Assembly: GCA_944381135.1 (NCBI GenBank) | Contig: CALWJY010000001.1 | Span: forward strand, 4,378 to 68,377 | Reading direction: 5' to 3' | Length of the DNA: 64,000 nt | Source of the DNA: an uncultured Clostridia bacterium | GTDB taxonomy: Bacteria > Bacillota > Clostridia > Christensenellales > UBA1242 | Notes under the pieces: model-generated | The model's database searches: none | What the model was told of the DNA's origin: nothing | What the model saw: the letters and a program-made list of their open reading frames with translations, nothing else | In this document: piece after piece, positions 3,807 through 38,220 of the stretch | Numbering within the stretch: the first letter of the stretch is position 1 | Layout: each line of letters starts with the position of its first letter | Program-made: the position numbers and the translations under genes

Positions 3807-5864
3807 ATGGCAATAAATTTGTTGTCACCAAGAATTTATAATCGAATTGCGGCGGGCGAGGTTGTTGAAAGACCGGCATCTGTCGTCAAAGAACTTGTTG
3901 AAAACAGTTTGGATGCGGGTGCAACACAAATTAGAGTTGAAATCGCTGAAGGCGGAATCAAGAAAATTTCCGTTTCGGACAATGGTTGTGGAATTTCAAA
4001 AGAAGATTTGCCACTTGCTTTTTTGCCACATGCCACAAGCAAAATTTCCAATCTTGAAGATTTGGACGAGATTGCAACTTTAGGGTTTCGTGGTGAGGCG
4101 CTTGCAAGCATTGCGTCAGTTTCGATGGTCAGTTTGACAACCAAAACAAAGGGCGAAGAGACAGGTCACAGAATTGAAGCCAACGGCGGAGAAATTTCAA
4201 AAATCAGCGAAGTTGCAAGGCTTGACGGAACAACAATCACTGTGGACAATTTGTTCTACAACACTCCAGCACGCGCAAAATTTTTGAAGAAACCAAAATC
4301 GGAAGAGGGCGAGGTGACGCATCTTTTTGAAAAGTTCATGATGGCGCATCCTGAAGTGGACTTTTGCTATGTTGTGGACGGAAAAGAAATCTACAACCAC
4401 TCTTCAGGCACTTTGGATGAAGTGATTTATCTCATCTATGGGCGTGAGGTTTTTGACAACCTTTTAAAACTTGATTTTCAGGATGAGAACATCAAGGTGA
4501 GTGGATATGTTGTCTCTCCAAAAATGACGCGTCCAAACAGAACCTATCAAACCTTGTTTGTCAACGGCAGATATGTTGAAAACTATATGGTTTCGGCGTG
4601 CGTTCAGGGAGTGTTTGAGCGCATGATTATGAAAGGCAGATTTCCAATCTATGTCATCAAACTTGAAATGCCTTTTGACAAGGTGGATGTCAATGTTCAT
4701 CCAAACAAAAAGGAAGTTAAGTTTGAAAATTCTTCGCGTGTTTTTGGTGTCATCAGGCGTGCAGTCGAAAAGGCACTTGTTTCAAGCAATTTGATTGCCG
4801 ATTTTGAATATTCCGAAAAAGAAGAGAAAGAATGGAGCAAATTCAGCATAAAGGGTGACGAAAATTTGGCTCAAACCGGTTTCAACGCCATTCAAGACAG
4901 AAAATATGAAAAATTGCGTGACGGTGAGGGTGCAAGTTATGTTGTTTCCGTTGATGATGACAGTATGAAAGAGAAAATTCTCTCACCAAAGGACTATCAA
5001 AAGAAAGGCATTGACATCATCAATATGCCAAACTTTTCGTCAGTCAAATCGGACGCCGAAAGCAAGAAGAACCGCAAAGGCGGAAACATTTTCTTTGACC
5101 ATTCGGGAGACAGTCTGTTGCACGAAGTTGAAATTTCTGTGCAAAAAGATGAAGAGGATGCTCAAAAACTTGCCGAAAATTCCAAAGAGGCTGACACAAC
5201 ACAAGCGGATGTTTTTGGCGAGGTGAGGCAGGAAAATGGGCAAGAATTTGCAAAAAGAACACCAAACTTCGTTGAGGAAAAGTTTTTGAAAGTTGGTGCA
5301 GATGAAATCAAAATTGTTGGCGTGGTGTTTAGGACCTACATCATCACTGAATTTGACGACAGCATTTATGTCATCGACCAGCACGCTATGCACGAAAGAC
5401 AGAATTATGACAAATTGAAAGCGCAAATTGAAAATCACAATGTTGCAAAACAAGATTTGCTTTTGCCATATGAAATCAATTTGCTCTCCAAAGACCGCGA
5501 GAAAATGGAAAACGCTTTGGACAATTTGCACCAAATTGGTTTTGAAATTCAGCAAAATGGTGGAAACTTCAAAGTGACAAGTGTGCCTTTTGTGCTTTCT
5601 GGAATTGACATGAACAAGTTTTTGCAAGAAATTTTGCAAGAGGATGTGATTGGCGAAAAGACGGCAAGTGGACTTATCAACGAAAAACTTTGTCAGTCGG
5701 CATGTAAGCATTCAATCAGAGCAGGCGACAACATTTCAAAGGACGAAATCATGTTTTTGATTGACAAAATCAAGGACGGCGTGACTCTTTGTCCACACGG
5801 CAGACCAATCATTGTGAAAATCACAAGAAAAGAACTTGAAAAAATGTTTAAAAGAACATTGTGA
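3807..5864 (+). CDS. mutL: DNA mismatch repair endonuclease MutL
   Basis: IAAGEVVERPASVVKELVENSLDAG and GFRGEAL; endonuclease motifs DQHAMHER, ACK and CPHGRP; AGGAGG RBS. Confidence 0.98.
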   Translation: MAINLLSPRIYNRIAAGEVVERPASVVKELVENSLDAGATQIRVEIAEGGIKKISVSDNGCGISKEDLPLAFLPHATSKISNLEDLDEIATLGFRGEALASIASVSMVSLTTKTKGEETGHRIEANGGEISKISEVARLDGTTITVDNLFYNTPARAKFLKKPKSEEGEVTHLFEKFMMAHPEVDFCYVVDGKEIYNHSSGTLDEVIYLIYGREVFDNLLKLDFQDENIKVSGYVVSPKMTRPNRTYQTLFVNGRYVENYMVSACVQGVFERMIMKGRFPIYVIKLEMPFDKVDVNVHPNKKEVKFENSSRVFGVIRRAVEKALVSSNLIADFEYSEKEEKEWSKFSIKGDENLAQTGFNAIQDRKYEKLRDGEGASYVVSVDDDSMKEKILSPKDYQKKGIDIINMPNFSSVKSDAESKKNRKGGNIFFDHSGDSLLHEVEISVQKDEEDAQKLAENSKEADTTQADVFGEVRQENGQEFAKRTPNFVEEKFLKVGADEIKIVGVVFRTYIITEFDDSIYVIDQHAMHERQNYDKLKAQIENHNVAKQDLLLPYEINLLSKDREKMENALDNLHQIGFEIQQNGGNFKVTSVPFVLSGIDMNKFLQEILQEDVIGEKTASGLINEKLCQSACKHSIRAGDNISKDEIMFLIDKIKDGVTLCPHGRPIIVKITRKELEKMFKRTL

Positions 5865-34053: not shown

Positions 34054-35184
34054 ATGATTGTTGTTTACATTTTGCTTGCCATAGTCATTCTGCTTTTCAT
34101 GGTGCTTATCCATGAATTTGGACACTATGTTGCAGGCAAAATTTTGAAGTTTAAAATCACAGAATTTTCTGTTGGTTTTGGCTTTCCAATCTTCACGCGA
34201 ACGAGCAAGAAAACGGGCGAAAAATTTTCGCTCAGAATTTTTCCATTGGGTGGATATTGCTCTTTTGAAGGCGAGGACGACGAGGGAGAATCTTCTTCTC
34301 CAACAGCATTCAACAATCAAAAGCCTTGGAAAAGAATCATTGTGTTTTTGGCGGGCGTGACAGCAAACTTTTTGACAGCCATAATTTTTTCTTGGATTTT
34401 GCTTTGCACAATTGGATATGATGTTCCGCAAATTGCGCGTTTCAATCAAGTCTACACAAATCCATATCAAGTTGGAGATGTCATCACTCACATTGAGGGA
34501 CAAAAAATTGATTTTGCATTTGGCGGAAATTTTGTTGACCTTGTCACAAGTGAAAAACAGACGGCTTTGGCGCAGTATAGAGAGCAGTATGAGGCAAATG
34601 GCAACAGTCTTGAGGGCGTTGAGGCTTCCTATACATTTGAAATGACTGTCAAGCGTGACGGAGAACTTCAAAATTTGACAATCACAATCTATCCTGTTGT
34701 TGAAGTCAACAGCACGAATGGTGAAGAATATGTAAATGTCTATACAGGGCTTGAAAGCGCGGAGGGTGAAGACCCTTGCACAGTTGCATATGTCTATGAC
34801 GCATGGTCGGGCTTTTGTCGTTCGTTTGAAATGGCATTTGGCTTTGCTTGGGTGGTTCTGAAGAGCCTTTGGATGCTCATTACATTTCAAATTCCAATCA
34901 CGGAAATGGGCGGAACAATTGCCACAATTTCCACAATTGCAACCATGGCGTCACAAAGCATGTCCTACATTTTGGTTTTCATCCCGCTGATTGCGGCGAA
35001 TTTGGCGGTGTTTAATGTCTTGCCGTTTCCGGCGCTGGACGGCTCGCATGTGCTTTTCACAATCATAGAGTGGATTCGAGGCAAGCCAATTAATCGAAAA
35101 GTTGAGAGCATGATTCACTTTGTCGGGCTTTGCATTTTGTTTGGTTTTGTGATTATTGTGGACATATTGCATTTTGTCCTATGA
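34054..35184 (+). CDS. rseP: RIP metalloprotease RseP/RasP (M50)
   Basis: HEFGH, EFSVGFG, PLGGYC, NVLPFPALDG; position after cdsA. Confidence 0.93.
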   Translation: MIVVYILLAIVILLFMVLIHEFGHYVAGKILKFKITEFSVGFGFPIFTRTSKKTGEKFSLRIFPLGGYCSFEGEDDEGESSSPTAFNNQKPWKRIIVFLAGVTANFLTAIIFSWILLCTIGYDVPQIARFNQVYTNPYQVGDVITHIEGQKIDFAFGGNFVDLVTSEKQTALAQYREQYEANGNSLEGVEASYTFEMTVKRDGELQNLTITIYPVVEVNSTNGEEYVNVYTGLESAEGEDPCTVAYVYDAWSGFCRSFEMAFGFAWVVLKSLWMLITFQIPITEMGGTIATISTIATMASQSMSYILVFIPLIAANLAVFNVLPFPALDGSHVLFTIIEWIRGKPINRKVESMIHFVGLCILFGFVIIVDILHFVL

Positions 35185-35205
35185 TTTTTGAATGATGATA
35201 TGAAT

Positions 35206-35236
35206 AAGGAACGGCGAAATGACCGTTCTTTTTTTA
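35206..35236 (+). terminator. intrinsic terminator
   Basis: AAGGAACGG...CCGTTCTT followed by a T-run. Confidence 0.65.
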
Positions 35237-35367
35237 ATAAAACTTTTTTATGTAAATTTTCAAAGTTTACAAGAGAGGATGATGTCGTGTCAAGTTTGTT
35301 TTTGGTTTGCTTTCTTTTCTGAGAAGTGATTGTTGTTCTGTGCATTTAAAATTAATTTCATATGTGC

Positions 35368-35396
35368 TTGACAAATTTTCAAGTTTGACATAAAAT
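35368..35396 (+). promoter_or_regulatory. SigA-type promoter, 6 nt upstream of ATG 35403
   Basis: TTGACA-17-TAAAAT. Confidence 0.75.
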
Positions 35397-35402
35397 TGTT
35401 GT

Positions 35403-36935
35403 ATGAATTTCCAGCAAGAGTTTGCCACAAAGTTTGGCGAAAAATATCCAACACTTCAACTTAAAAGCGTTGCGGTCAAGAAAAGCACAGGGGCGTTTTT
35501 CATCACTTTTTTATATCCATCCACCGACACAGAACTTTCTGATGAGCAAAAAAGCGAAATCACGCAGTGGATTTGCCAATTTTTGAAACTTGAAAATCTG
35601 CAAGTCAGAGTCAAGTTTATGCGTGTTTTTGTGGAAGAAAGGCTGATTATGAAGTCGGTTTTGTCTTTCTTTGAAAACAAATATAAATTGATTTCAACCT
35701 ATCTTTCTGAGAAAAGTTTTCAAATCAAAATCACACCAATTGATGTTCAGATTGGAGTTGAGGTGAGTTCGAGACTTTTTAATTTCTTCGTGGAGCACAA
35801 CATTTCGGCAGAACTTTCAAAACATCTTAAAGACAACTTTTTGGTGGATTTTGTTGTGGAACTTCATGAAAATGCCAACTTGGTTGATGAAGTGGACATC
35901 GACAATGTCCAAATGAAAACGAAATATAAAATTGTTCACAGATATAAAGTTGACATCGTGAAAGAGATTGTAGGCAAAGACATCAATCCGACACCAGAAT
36001 TTATTTCTTTCATTAAACAGCCAAAAAATTCGGTTATCGTTGCAGGCTTTGTTGACAAACTTGAACGTCGAGATTTCATCATCAAAAAAGGCAAACGCGA
36101 AGGTCAACAGAAAGCATATTTCAGTTTCAAAATTGATGACGGAAAAGGCAAAATGGACTGCATTTTCTTCTGTGCAAAAAAATATGAAAAAGTGATGGAC
36201 TCTTTGGAAGACTGCATGTTTTTGCTTTTGCGCGGGGATGTCAGACTGAACCAAATGGGCAAACTTTGCCTTTATGTTGATAAAATTGCTTTGGCAAGTC
36301 GAACGGAAGAGCCTCAAGAAATCATAAAACCACAGAAGAGTTATGATGGAAAAGTGGTTGAGGTTGAAAAACTGACCGCCATGGAACAAGACAGCATGTT
36401 TGAGCACAAAAACAAATATAACGCCAAAATTATGGGTAAAACAATTGTGGTGTTTGACATTGAAACGACAGGGCTTGACACAAATTCCGACCAAATCATC
36501 GAACTTGGTGCTGTGAAATTGGAAAATGGAAACATTGTCGAAAAATTTTCCACTTTTGTCAAACCAACAATACGAATTCCGTTTGCTGTTGTTGAACTGA
36601 CAGGAATCACGAATGAAATGGTGGAAGATGCACCACCAATTGAATTTGTCATCAAAGATTTCTATGACTTCACGCGCGGATGTGTTTTGTGTGGACATAA
36701 TGCAATTGAATTTGACATCAAATTCATCAGGCGCGAGGGGGCAAATTTGGGACTTAATTTTGACAATGAAATCATTGACACCATGAATGAGGCTCGTGTT
36801 TCAAGGCTTAAAATTTCGCGTTTCAATTTGGCAACAGTTTTGCGAGCTTTGGGGTTGACAAACGAAGGGGCTCACCGTGCGTGGAACGATGCTTACGCAA
36901 CTGCTCAGGTGCTTTTGAAACTAAACGAAGCTTGA
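35403..36935 (+). CDS. PolC-derived 3'-5' exonuclease (N-terminal domain + OB fold + DEDDh; no PHP or polymerase domain)
   Basis: ExoI FDIETTG, ExoII HNAIEFD, ExoIII HRAWND; OB-like segment VIVAGFVDKLERR..FSFKIDD..LLRGDV; lies between rseP and rimP, the usual polC position. Confidence 0.8.
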   Translation: MNFQQEFATKFGEKYPTLQLKSVAVKKSTGAFFITFLYPSTDTELSDEQKSEITQWICQFLKLENLQVRVKFMRVFVEERLIMKSVLSFFENKYKLISTYLSEKSFQIKITPIDVQIGVEVSSRLFNFFVEHNISAELSKHLKDNFLVDFVVELHENANLVDEVDIDNVQMKTKYKIVHRYKVDIVKEIVGKDINPTPEFISFIKQPKNSVIVAGFVDKLERRDFIIKKGKREGQQKAYFSFKIDDGKGKMDCIFFCAKKYEKVMDSLEDCMFLLLRGDVRLNQMGKLCLYVDKIALASRTEEPQEIIKPQKSYDGKVVEVEKLTAMEQDSMFEHKNKYNAKIMGKTIVVFDIETTGLDTNSDQIIELGAVKLENGNIVEKFSTFVKPTIRIPFAVVELTGITNEMVEDAPPIEFVIKDFYDFTRGCVLCGHNAIEFDIKFIRREGANLGLNFDNEIIDTMNEARVSRLKISRFNLATVLRALGLTNEGAHRAWNDAYATAQVLLKLNEA

Positions 36936-37414
36936 CTCGAAAACTGCGCTGTTTGCTCATTTTTGGCATTTCATGCCAAAAAGCATCGCTCTGACGCTTG
37001 TTTTCGAGTCATCGCGCCAGACGAAAATCTCACTGACGTTGCGATTTTGCGCGACTCTCTTGCGAAGAATGAGATTCTAAGAGAGATGGTGTTTTTTTAG
37101 AAAGTAGCACTGCCACAAAACCGCGCTGTTTGCTTATTTTTGCCATTTCATGCCAAAAAGTTTCGCCCTGACGCTTGTTTTCGGTGGCATTGCCACAATT
37201 TAAAGAATGCAAATTAAAAGGGGTTCAAAAAAATTCTTAAATTTTTGGGAAAAGGAATGACCAAGCATTTTCCGAGTGCTTGCGAAAAGCAAGCCGAGTT
37301 TGAGCGCGGGTCATAACGCGGTCGCGACTCTCCTATCGAAGTGGGAGATTCTAAGAAAAAGATGTGTGTTTTAAAAAGTGGCACTGCCACCATCACTCTG
37401 AGCAAAGCCCGTTG
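36933..37414. repeat. structured dispersed repeat, copies 2 and 3, plus an internal direct repeat
   Basis: Hairpins at 36933-37011, 37012-37054 and 37111-37189; 37050-37116 recurs at 37323-37390. Confidence 0.8.
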
Positions 37415-37430
37415 TTTTGAACTTATATTT

Positions 37431-37562
37431 GTCACCCTGAGCGAAGTCGAAGGGTCTCATGGTGATTAAAAAGGAAAGAGATTCTTCGACACAGCCTGTC
37501 GGCTGGCTCAGAATGACGAAGAAAATTGCCGAATGTCATTCTGACCGAAGTGGAAGAATCTC
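37431..37562. repeat. cluster of REP-like repeats including an inverted pair (REPIN-like)
   Basis: 37431-37458 direct; 37478-37517 inverted (GAGATTCTTC...TCAGAATGAC); 37535-37562 direct (GTCATTCTGA...GAAGAATCTC). Confidence 0.8.
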
Positions 37563-37761
37563 GGACTACACTTAAGGTGGCGGTGGAGCACTAATTTTTA
37601 AAAAAAACACAAAATTGTTATAATAAAATTTTTAATTTTTTGAAAAAATCCTTGCTTTTTATGATTTTTTGGGTTATAATGTTTATATCTTGACATTGGA
37701 GGGGGCATTTTTGCCTCCTCCTTGTGTTAAAAAGACATTTTTGCAAAAAATTGGAGGAAAA

Positions 37762-38220
37762 ATGGCAAAGATTAAACAAATTTGTGAAGAAAAACTTAAG
37801 AGCGTGGTTGAGGAAATGGGCTATGAACTTGTGGACGTGGACTATGTCAAAGAGGGCAGTGGAATGAGCCTTATTTTCACCATAGACAAAGATGGTGGCG
37901 TGAATGTTGACGATTGCGAACTTGTCAGCAAACAACTTGACCCAATTCTTGATGAAATCAACCCAACGGAAGACAAACCTTATACACTTGTGGTTTCATC
38001 TCCGGGTCTTGACAGACCACTTAAGACGGACAGAGATTTGAAACGCAATTTGGGCGAAGAAGTTGAAGTGACTCTCTTTGCAAAACTTGACGGAAAGAAA
38101 AAGTTTGTTGGAGTTTTGGAAAGTTTTGACGAGAAGAATATCACTTTGAAAATGGAAAAAGAAAGCAAGACATTTGAGAGAGAAAAAATTGGCTCAATCA
38201 AACTTGTCATCAAATTTTAA
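37762..38220 (+). CDS. rimP: ribosome maturation factor RimP
   Basis: DKDGGVNVDDCELVS, LVVSSPGLDRPL; GGAGG RBS at ATG 37762. Confidence 0.96.
   Translation: MAKIKQICEEKLKSVVEEMGYELVDVDYVKEGSGMSLIFTIDKDGGVNVDDCELVSKQLDPILDEINPTEDKPYTLVVSSPGLDRPLKTDRDLKRNLGEEVEVTLFAKLDGKKKFVGVLESFDEKNITLKMEKESKTFEREKIGSIKLVIKF

Follow-up and report, generated by a model that had tools for sequence, protein, structure and literature searches.

An apparent polymerase-less descendant of polC occupies the polC locus in uncultured Clostridia with a single DnaE1 replicase

The stretch of DNA considered here (the window) comprises 64,000 nucleotides (nt) from the genome of an uncultured Clostridia bacterium (Christensenellales; UBA1242), corresponding to positions 4,378 to 68,377 of the forward strand of contig CALWJY010000001.1 in assembly GCA_944381135.1; all coordinates below refer to the window. 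On the plus strand, positions 35403..36935 hold an intact open reading frame (ORF) with an ATG start codon. It encodes a protein of 510 amino acids (aa), identified by domain and homologue searches as a remnant of the DNA polymerase PolC with an N-terminal domain (NTD), an OB fold, a linker and a DEDDh exonuclease. Judged from these comparisons, the gene is a descendant of polC that has shed both halves of the PHP domain and the entire polymerase, and has kept the NTD, the OB fold and the exonuclease.

Upstream of the ORF, a promoter-like site, TTGACA-17-TAAAAT, lies at 35368..35396 on the plus strand (−35 hexamer 35368-35373, −10 hexamer 35391-35396); it agrees with the consensus at 11 of 12 positions and is the best-scoring site of its type in the region. 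An initial annotation, made from the letters of the window alone, had started the feature at 35368, which is the −35 hexamer and not the start of the ORF. The end of the −10 hexamer is separated from the ATG at 35403 by 6 nt without a Shine-Dalgarno sequence, so that the mRNA is probably leaderless; among the public sequencing runs, none of RNA was listed as containing the sequence. The same arrangement, TTGACA-17-TAnAAT ending about 6 nt before an ATG and again without a Shine-Dalgarno sequence, is present at 12 of 12 same-genus loci (35368-35405 in the window and loci L009-L019), which suggests that a leaderless mRNA is conserved across the genus. By eye, purine-rich stretches resembling Shine-Dalgarno sequences were noticed upstream of the short gene at several loci from other families. 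A terminator-like hairpin (35206..35231, plus strand), with a 9-pair stem followed by a run of T residues, lies 3' of rseP and separates the ORF from this upstream gene.

The chromosomal setting identifies the gene. Upstream are tsf, frr, uppS, cdsA and rseP, and downstream are rimP, nusA, ylxR, an L7Ae-like gene and infB. The order rseP > X > rimP > nusA is found at all 12 same-genus loci and at 18 of 20 loci from other families (L027 and L039 are cut by contig ends, and rseP was undetected at L033). Furthermore, in the six loci of the same order that carry a full-length polC, polC invariably follows rseP, and the three that are long enough also show rimP > nusA on its other side. The 510-aa gene therefore occupies the polC slot, and by position it is the polC orthologue. 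When positions 35000-38000 were searched by tblastn with the full PolC of a relative, the exonuclease was recovered and nothing else at E <1. Leftover polC sequence 3' of the ORF was considered and rejected, as tblastn finds the exonuclease alone and the spacer that follows is made of dispersed repeats.

AlphaFold2, run on a 30-row alignment, gave a model with a mean predicted local distance difference test score (pLDDT) of 86.8 and confident modules at residues 1-160, 180-300 and 346-510, separated by low-confidence stretches at 163-176, 304-313 and 327-335. The first module (35403..35882, plus strand) is an NTD of two tandem type-II KH-like alpha/beta lobes, assigned from the model, fold matches and hhalign. 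The second, at about residues 180-300 (35940..36302, plus strand), is an OB fold modelled as a beta-barrel with pLDDT of about 90 or above; it aligns to the OB fold of PolC and has a Pfam PF01336 match of 27.7 bits (cut-off 27) over residues 215-295, a match shared by 25 of 30 homologues. Residues 301-345 (36303..36437, plus strand) form a linker predicted to be disordered, with pLDDT below 50 at 304-313 and 327-335, which stands where PolC has the N-terminal segment of its PHP domain (PHP-N). Within it lies the beta-clamp-binding-like motif QDSMF (residues 329-333; 36387..36401, plus strand), which is conserved across homologues. The remainder, residues 346-510 (36438..36932, plus strand), is a DEDDh 3'-5' exonuclease that ends right after the ExoIII motif and matches Pfam RNase_T (PF00929) at residues 349-504 with E 3.4e-34. 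All 30 aligned homologues share the five catalytic residues D352, E354, D438, H491 and D496, and the protein terminates 14 residues past D496, leaving no room for the C-terminal tail with which epsilon binds the PHP domain of the alpha subunit. Pfam and NCBIfam searches of the ORF found no PF02811 (PHP), PF07733 (palm/thumb) or PF17657 (fingers) domain; the full PolCs of the order show the polymerase core. The anatomy set out in the initial annotation thus holds throughout: an intact 510-aa ORF with a near-consensus promoter at the polC locus; an NTD, an OB-like domain and a linker of about 45 aa with QDSMF at 36387-36401; and a complete exonuclease without PHP before it or a polymerase after it.

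Several comparisons place the exonuclease with that of PolC. The NCBIfam PolC model NF001688 aligns residues 331-508 with model positions 408-585 of 1445, scoring 168.3 bits against a full-length cut-off of 873, and the second PolC model, TIGR01405, likewise stays below its threshold (144.6 bits, cut-off 1043). The generic DnaQ model TIGR00573 is exceeded (103.4 bits, cut-off 71.5), and the proteobacterial epsilon model TIGR01406 is not (74.6 bits, cut-off 222.7). The domain is 40-50% identical to the exonucleases of the order's own PolCs and matches the PolC exonuclease structures 2p1j (E 8.2e-31) and 9qpc. With the complete model as query, Foldseek placed Enterococcus faecium PolC (9qpc_A) at the top (E 2.5e-19, 378 columns), followed by DnaQ-type nucleases; the model also matches the folds of 2ido, 1j53 and 5fkv_D. 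Alignment of the whole protein with the PolCs of the order by hhalign is collinear across PolC residues 18-582, and the linker falls opposite the PHP-N segment.

The origin of the N-terminus was approached in several ways. Folded alone, the NTD reaches a pLDDT of 94.9, and VIA-align returned RbfA (Z 9.8), the KH domain of uS3, DnaA domain I (Z 7.3), DciA (Z 6.4), the KH-like domain of Der and the NusA KH domain as fold matches, with Z of 6-10 being the range of common arrangements. Tau domain V was not among the best 50 fold matches listed, which is evidence neither for nor against such a relationship. When residues 1-200 were aligned by hhalign with six PolC N-terminal regions, 124 collinear columns were obtained at E 1.2e-5 and 81% probability; the control, alignment with the C-terminal 840 residues of PolC, gave E 0.48. 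Two type-II KH-like lobes have been published for the PolC NTD (PMC3919608, accessible text), a domain left unresolved in the PolC cryo-electron microscopy structures described in the accessible text of PMC12592400. Taking together the moderate profile score, the KH-like model, the position in the slot and the homology of the flanking domains, the N-terminus likely derives from PolC. A profile of the NTD built from 39 short forms was also run against 1.84 billion representative sequences, giving 584 matches at E <=0.001 (413 at E <=1e-10). The best 150 of these 584 were all <=577 aa, with no full PolC among them; this search measured the size of the family, and gave no link to PolC.

Clamp-binding motifs in bacteria follow consensus forms such as QL[SD]LF or QxxLxF, and the linker contains a sequence of this kind in an otherwise variable setting. 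At least 90% of 30 homologues retain Q329, and 29 of the 32 compared proteins whose exonuclease is active carry a pattern Q-x-x-[LMIVF]-[FLMW] at the linker site, covering 15 families and variants such as QDSMF, QDNLF, QASLF, QADLF and QVDLF. In the model, QDSMF sits in a disordered segment (pLDDT <50). Residues 296-510 were co-folded with two copies of the sliding clamp DnaN, giving interaction prediction scores from aligned errors (ipSAE) of 0.48, 0.48 and 0.50; the best of three controls scored 0.01, and the result was rated as weak support. For calibration, 116 of 157 solved complexes and 2 of 215 mismatches attained the ipSAE mark; with ipSAE <=0.60, just 18 of the 157 did so, together with both passing mismatches. 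The runs with DnaN share at least 91% of their contacts, with a partner pLDDT of at least 81. As clamp-peptide complexes are common among solved structures, the score may be driven by memory of those complexes.

The replication genes of the same genome were examined in an assembly of 1.19 Mb in 16 contigs (98.5% complete, 0.65% contaminated). It contains a single match to PF07733, a DnaE of 1205 aa on contig 15, whose domains are PHP, palm/thumb, fingers, HhH and OB and whose score on NF005298 is 1429 bits (cut-off 1260). The PolC model gave no match above its cut-off across the genome, and tblastn with the PolC of a relative recovered the exonuclease of the ORF and the DnaE, and nothing else. 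A split PolC located elsewhere was considered and rejected, since the PF07733, PolC-model and tblastn searches were all blank for one. PF00929 also has a single match, in the 510-aa ORF. These four results together indicate one C-family polymerase, with the PolC remnant as the sole DEDDh exonuclease; the replisome polymerase is a single DnaE1, with no PolC polymerase.

In a comparison of 41 DnaE sequences from the order, the PHP residues HHDHEHCDH were present in every one, and a GQxS[LF]F-like motif occupied the canonical internal site in all 41 (GQISFF in the DnaE of this genome). A PHP signature of the HHDHEHCDH type is scored as an active proofreader in the accessible text of a 2026 survey of bacterial polymerases (PMC12926913). 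The DnaE sequences also differ in an insertion within the palm/thumb domain (PF07733), at residues of about 490-505 in the DnaE of this genome (L007:5268-8882), which is variable, hydrophilic and 2-30 aa long. It was observed in 21 of 21 rows from DnaE-only genomes and in 0 of 20 DnaE rows from families with PolC; it could be a contact site that arose together with the loss of PolC, or a neutral loop.

The short gene is conserved well beyond the genome in which it was noticed. All 24 same-genus genomes contain it at 36-65% identity, with 23 frames of 511-536 aa and one cut by a contig end, and identity among short forms across families is 22-33%. Within the length range searched, the public protein collection yielded 296 relatives at E <=0.001; where they have names, these are 'PolC-type DNA polymerase III [Candidatus Caccovivens sp.]' or 'ribonuclease H-like domain-containing protein [Clostridia bacterium]'. 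Genomes matched by the whole protein were all metagenome-assembled, and are assigned to uncultured Christensenella sp., Christensenellaceae, Clostridia bacterium and Candidatus Neoclostridium roslinense. By these measures, selection has acted on the protein from a time before the families split.

Its distribution was assessed in 151 evenly sampled genomes representing 42 families of the order. A short form (about 450-560 aa, some contig-cut), without any frame of PolC length, is present in 75 of them, from 18 families; among these 75, PF07733 has one match in 71 genomes, two in three and none in one (G082). In two of the genomes with two matches (G105 and G157) these are apparently two stretches of one DnaE of 1253-1291 aa; the third is G156. 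In the other 76 genomes (24 families), the PolC frames measure about 1100-1512 aa or are contig-cut, and PF07733 always has at least two matches. In a DnaE tree of 41 rows, with at least one per family (quick IQ-TREE run, LG+G4, no bootstrap, unrooted), a single branch parts the 21 DnaE-only rows from the 20 PolC-containing rows, with a Shimodaira-Hasegawa-like approximate likelihood-ratio test (SH-aLRT) value of 100. In a tree of exonuclease domains, too, the 33 active short forms all lie to the same side of one branch (SH-aLRT 97). The simplest reading of these sequence data is a single loss of the PolC polymerase in an ancestor of the short-form families. Much of what the initial annotation had left to the comparison of genomes is therefore supported: there is no full polC elsewhere, with one PF07733 match (DnaE) and tblastn hits to the exonuclease and DnaE only; the genome is DnaE-only, with a single DnaE1 as the Pol III alpha subunit; the ORF is conserved in all 24 genomes of the genus and in 18 families; and the Q-x-S-[ML]-F motif is conserved as Qxx[LMIVF][FLMW] in 29 of 32 proteins amid an otherwise variable linker. 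The relationship of the N-terminus to PolC, which it had also proposed, has moderate support from the hhalign score and the two-lobed KH-like model.

These observations bear on the possibility that the ORF is merely a decaying pseudogene, or that an assembly or binning artefact has left the rest of polC missing. In favour of such an explanation, the genome is a 16-contig draft. However, in the interior of a 303-kb contig the ORF is directly followed by rimP and nusA, no PolC remnant is found downstream, the frame has stayed intact at the identities seen within the genus and across families, and 71 of the 75 clade genomes agree on a single PF07733 match. Decay or artefact is contradicted by these data, and we consider it extremely improbable.

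Variants of the polymerase were also noticed among the PolC-containing families. In both genomes of family f4 that were checked (L216/G027 and L217/G068), the full-length PolC (1416 and 1476 aa) reads SRSTE where the five DEDDh residues should stand, and thus appears from its sequence to be a PolC with a dead proofreading domain; this family adjoined the DnaE-only clade in an initial DnaE tree that was later rebuilt (SH-aLRT 88). In family f22, three of five genomes (G045, G136 and G160) have PolC-type PF07733 matches, but the exonuclease query finds nothing in them at E <=1e-8; they may have PolCs without the exonuclease insert, a form reported for some Clostridia (PMC3919608, accessible text). 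Unusually long DnaE frames occur in family f16 (G105, 1291 aa; G157, 1253 aa) and family f34 (G168, 1442 aa). In G105 and G157, the best stretch matches the palm domain model only to about position 200, and the f16 frames may hold an insertion such as an intein.

A further possibility is that the protein is a repair or processing exonuclease that works away from the replication fork, comparable to ExoX or the N-terminal nuclease of DinG, and is simply encoded at the old polC site. Models of the DEDD family, of DinG-related proteins and of generic 3'-5' exonucleases do match (NF005905, E 6e-44; TIGR01407, E 5.9e-39), all below their cut-offs, and clamp motifs are also found in many repair enzymes. 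Against this, the slot and the collinear homology tie the protein to PolC, its exonuclease is closest to that of PolC (2p1j and 9qpc, with NF001688 the top NCBIfam match), it is the sole DEDDh enzyme of a 1.19-Mb genome, and it has been retained exactly in the clade that lost the PolC polymerase. We regard a role of this kind as improbable.

The reading that we prefer, with a probability of roughly 0.6, is that the protein is a clamp-tethered proofreading and replisome subunit of a DnaE1-only replisome, a proposal that combines sequence comparison, structural models and analogy. The short disordered linker with its clamp-binding motif would stand in for the N-terminal PHP segment of PolC. QDSMF would dock the 510-aa protein on the second pocket of the DnaN dimer, with DnaE1 on the other protomer, and the docked protein would remove misincorporated or mismatched 3' ends in trans. 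The NTD and the OB fold might supply a further, non-catalytic contact in the replisome, with DNA or another subunit. Clamp binding, the proofreading of DnaE1 products and the NTD/OB contacts are what we infer from the models and from related systems. As the PHP site is intact in all 41 DnaE1 sequences, the remnant is probably a second proofreader beside the PHP domain of DnaE1.

Known systems provide useful comparisons. With PolC itself (NF001688/TIGR01405; 9qpc, 2p1j) the protein shares the chromosomal slot and the collinear NTD, OB fold and DEDDh exonuclease; it differs in having no PHP on either side of the exonuclease, in the absence of palm, thumb, fingers and HhH domains, and in the clamp-type motif of the new linker directly before the exonuclease. 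Escherichia coli epsilon (DnaQ; TIGR01406; 5fku) is also a stand-alone DEDDh enzyme for DnaE1 with a clamp motif beside the nuclease. The epsilon motif, QTSMAF, follows the nuclease domain and adjoins it, whereas that of the remnant precedes the nuclease; furthermore, epsilon has a C-terminal tail that binds the PHP domain of alpha, whereas the remnant ends after ExoIII and carries 300 residues of PolC-derived NTD and OB fold in front. On present comparisons the two are of independent origin.

Like epsilon, two further systems are precedents for such removal of 3' ends in trans. The non-canonical mycobacterial DnaQ binds the clamp and co-proofreads with the PHP domain of DnaE1, and its clamp motif is dispensable for the antimutator effect (PMC11348249, accessible text). 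Like the system described here, this is a DnaE1-only replisome with an intact PHP proofreader and a clamp-type DEDDh enzyme, clamp binding by the remnant being putative; however, the domain make-up is different, and the mycobacterial protein lacks PolC ancestry. In Bacillus subtilis, the exonuclease of PolC corrects errors of DnaE in a complex of DnaE, PolC and template (PMC5627055, accessible text), and the remnant could be this trans-proofreading activity, kept past the loss of the polymerase. There, however, PolC is a full polymerase and the DnaE is of the error-prone DnaE3 type. Bacteroidetes have a DnaE1 with an N-terminally fused exonuclease, and some clostridial PolCs lack the exonuclease insert (PMC3919608, accessible text). 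As in the present case, the DEDDh module has been gained, lost and moved among C-family replicases, though those examples are polymerases.

Not every protein in the slot retains catalysis. Ten genomes in which a single-sequence search had been weak or blank yielded the slot protein to a family profile. Nine of these genomes encode a protein without any of the five DEDDh residues, the positions reading, for instance, HNFNS or -TVQK. These nine belong to family f26 (G049, G085, G113, G139 and G163) and to genera g43 and g75 of family f42 (G066, G098, G172 and G125). Across the slot proteins examined, DEDHD is present in 33 of 42 and replaced in nine. The dead-exonuclease proteins are 485-547 aa long and keep the NTD and OB fold; the rseP-to-rimP slot is preserved in four of five loci checked (L120, L121, L123 and L124), with L125 showing rseP only. 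Their dead exonuclease domain is not left to drift: L128 and L129 are 74% identical in it and 62-66% in the NTD and OB fold, and for L128 and L120 the values are 48% and 39-41%. Q-containing linker motifs persist as well (QLSFAM, QMSFVE and QISFS). Where the dead-exonuclease lineages conserve the protein in this way, exonuclease catalysis cannot be the only selected function; the comparisons imply that a selected non-catalytic role is carried by the NTD, the OB fold, the clamp motif and the nuclease fold. The proposal of the initial annotation that the protein is a proofreader therefore stands in part: the DEDDh residues are intact in the window's gene, and proofreading is not the whole function, given that the exonuclease is dead in two families.

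Such findings raise the alternative that the core selected function is non-catalytic, with the NTD, OB fold and clamp motif acting as a replisome scaffold or adaptor, linking for example the clamp or DnaE1 to DNA, the helicase or the clamp loader, and with the exonuclease as an accessory that some lineages dropped. Besides the replacement of every DEDDh residue in proteins that retain their length, slot, Q motifs and NTD/OB-like conservation, this alternative draws on the NTD, which is the sole module common to every variant. It is kept even in the 448-aa form of G062, the only genome of family f38, in which an OB match is absent and a low-complexity linker joins the NTD to an active exonuclease. 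The type-II KH fold of the NTD is common to DnaA domain I and DciA, both of which bind DnaB. However, those fold matches fall in the range of common arrangements, the DEDDh set is perfect in 33 of the 42 slot proteins, and the exonuclease is the best-conserved domain among the active lineages. We consider this alternative to be possible but unlikely. The broader suggestion that the KH-like and OB region at the N-terminus of PolC has an autonomous, polymerase-independent function, and that the remnant is a DnaE1 replisome adaptor for which proofreading is optional, is offered only tentatively, as slightly less doubtful. On this suggestion the clamp-tied module would have outlasted the polymerase in every lineage of the clade, those with a dead exonuclease included.

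Several results weigh against clamp-tethered proofreading as the role of the protein. With nine of 42 slot proteins dead yet conserved, exonuclease catalysis is evidently dispensable in part of the clade, and two of the genomes concerned (G066 and G125, both 97% complete) have no PF00929 exonuclease at E up to 0.001. Since its PHP site is intact, DnaE1 may proofread for itself. A clear Q motif is missing from three of the 32 proteins with an active exonuclease (L025, L035 and L037), and the DnaN co-fold score lies in the weak range, with no interface returned. The link between the NTD and PolC consists of a moderate profile score and a common fold, and the Pfam models of the PolC NI and NII regions match none of the 30 short forms at E <=0.01. 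This last result is uninformative, because the genuine PolCs of the order hardly match these models either (at most one of six, by a weak NII match at E 0.0088).

Other nucleases are present in some genomes with a dead slot exonuclease. Further PF00929 matches were found in G049, G085 and G139, and stand-alone exonucleases of about 195-205 aa in G098 and G172. In family f26, G163 (L133/L047) and G049 (L127) have separate exonucleases of about 190 aa with GRNLFAF or GQNLWAF directly before ExoI; with this hexapeptide clamp-type motif, the solo nucleases look epsilon-like. The idea that they are recent duplicates of the slot nuclease is unsupported, as the exonuclease tree places them outside the clade of short forms.

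No polymerase-less remnant of PolC is described in the titles and abstracts found by full-text search or in the accessible text of PMC3919608, PMC12926913 and PMC12592400, with supplements and subscription journals lying outside that scope. The accessible text of PMC3919608 lists DnaE1-only, PolC with DnaE1 and PolC with DnaE3 as the published combinations, with 'some' Clostridia being DnaE1-only; as that analysis dropped fragments without a polymerase active site, a remnant of this type could not appear in it. The 2026 survey covered complete genomes only, and in its accessible text additional DnaQ proteins in DnaE1-only systems are solely of the mycobacterial type and those of Treponema (PMC12926913). 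Measured against that account, the clade would be a third case in which a DnaE1-only system combines PHP proofreading with a proofreader of the DnaQ type. An epsilon-like proofreading subunit would have arisen from PolC, independently of E. coli DnaQ. It also offers a handle on the function of the NTD and OB region of PolC. If the adaptor alternative were true, the protein would represent a new kind of replisome subunit and a natural dissection of the PolC N-terminus, relevant across all Bacillota.

The finding has consequences for how these organisms are viewed. The replicase regarded as the hallmark of low-GC Gram-positive bacteria is PolC, whose polymerase is absent from 18 of the 42 sampled families of the order, which by their sequences form a large monophyletic set of uncultured gut Clostridia. 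The annotation 'PolC-type DNA polymerase III' on the remnant masks this absence. PolC is a drug target, for example of ibezapolstat (PMC12592400, accessible text), and members of the clade, having no PolC polymerase, should be intrinsically insensitive to PolC inhibitors.

Beyond the gene itself, the 733-nt spacer between the ORF and rimP (36936-37668) had no Rfam match at E up to 1 and is built of repeat units; two 67-nt copies, for example, at 36940-37006 and 37117-37183, agree at 91%. Similar copies are found on contigs C1, C2, C6, C7, C8, C9, C10, C13 and C15 of the same genome, and the repeats make up a dispersed intergenic family, similar to repetitive extragenic palindromes (REP) or miniature inverted-repeat transposable elements (MITE). 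A promoter-like site, TTTAAA-16-TATAAT with a TG element, is located at 37597-37624 upstream of rimP-nusA-infB, and a strong terminator-like hairpin of 10 pairs follows within the leader at 37698-37721. By analogy with B. subtilis, this region (37597-37721) may be an autoregulatory attenuator of the NusA type.

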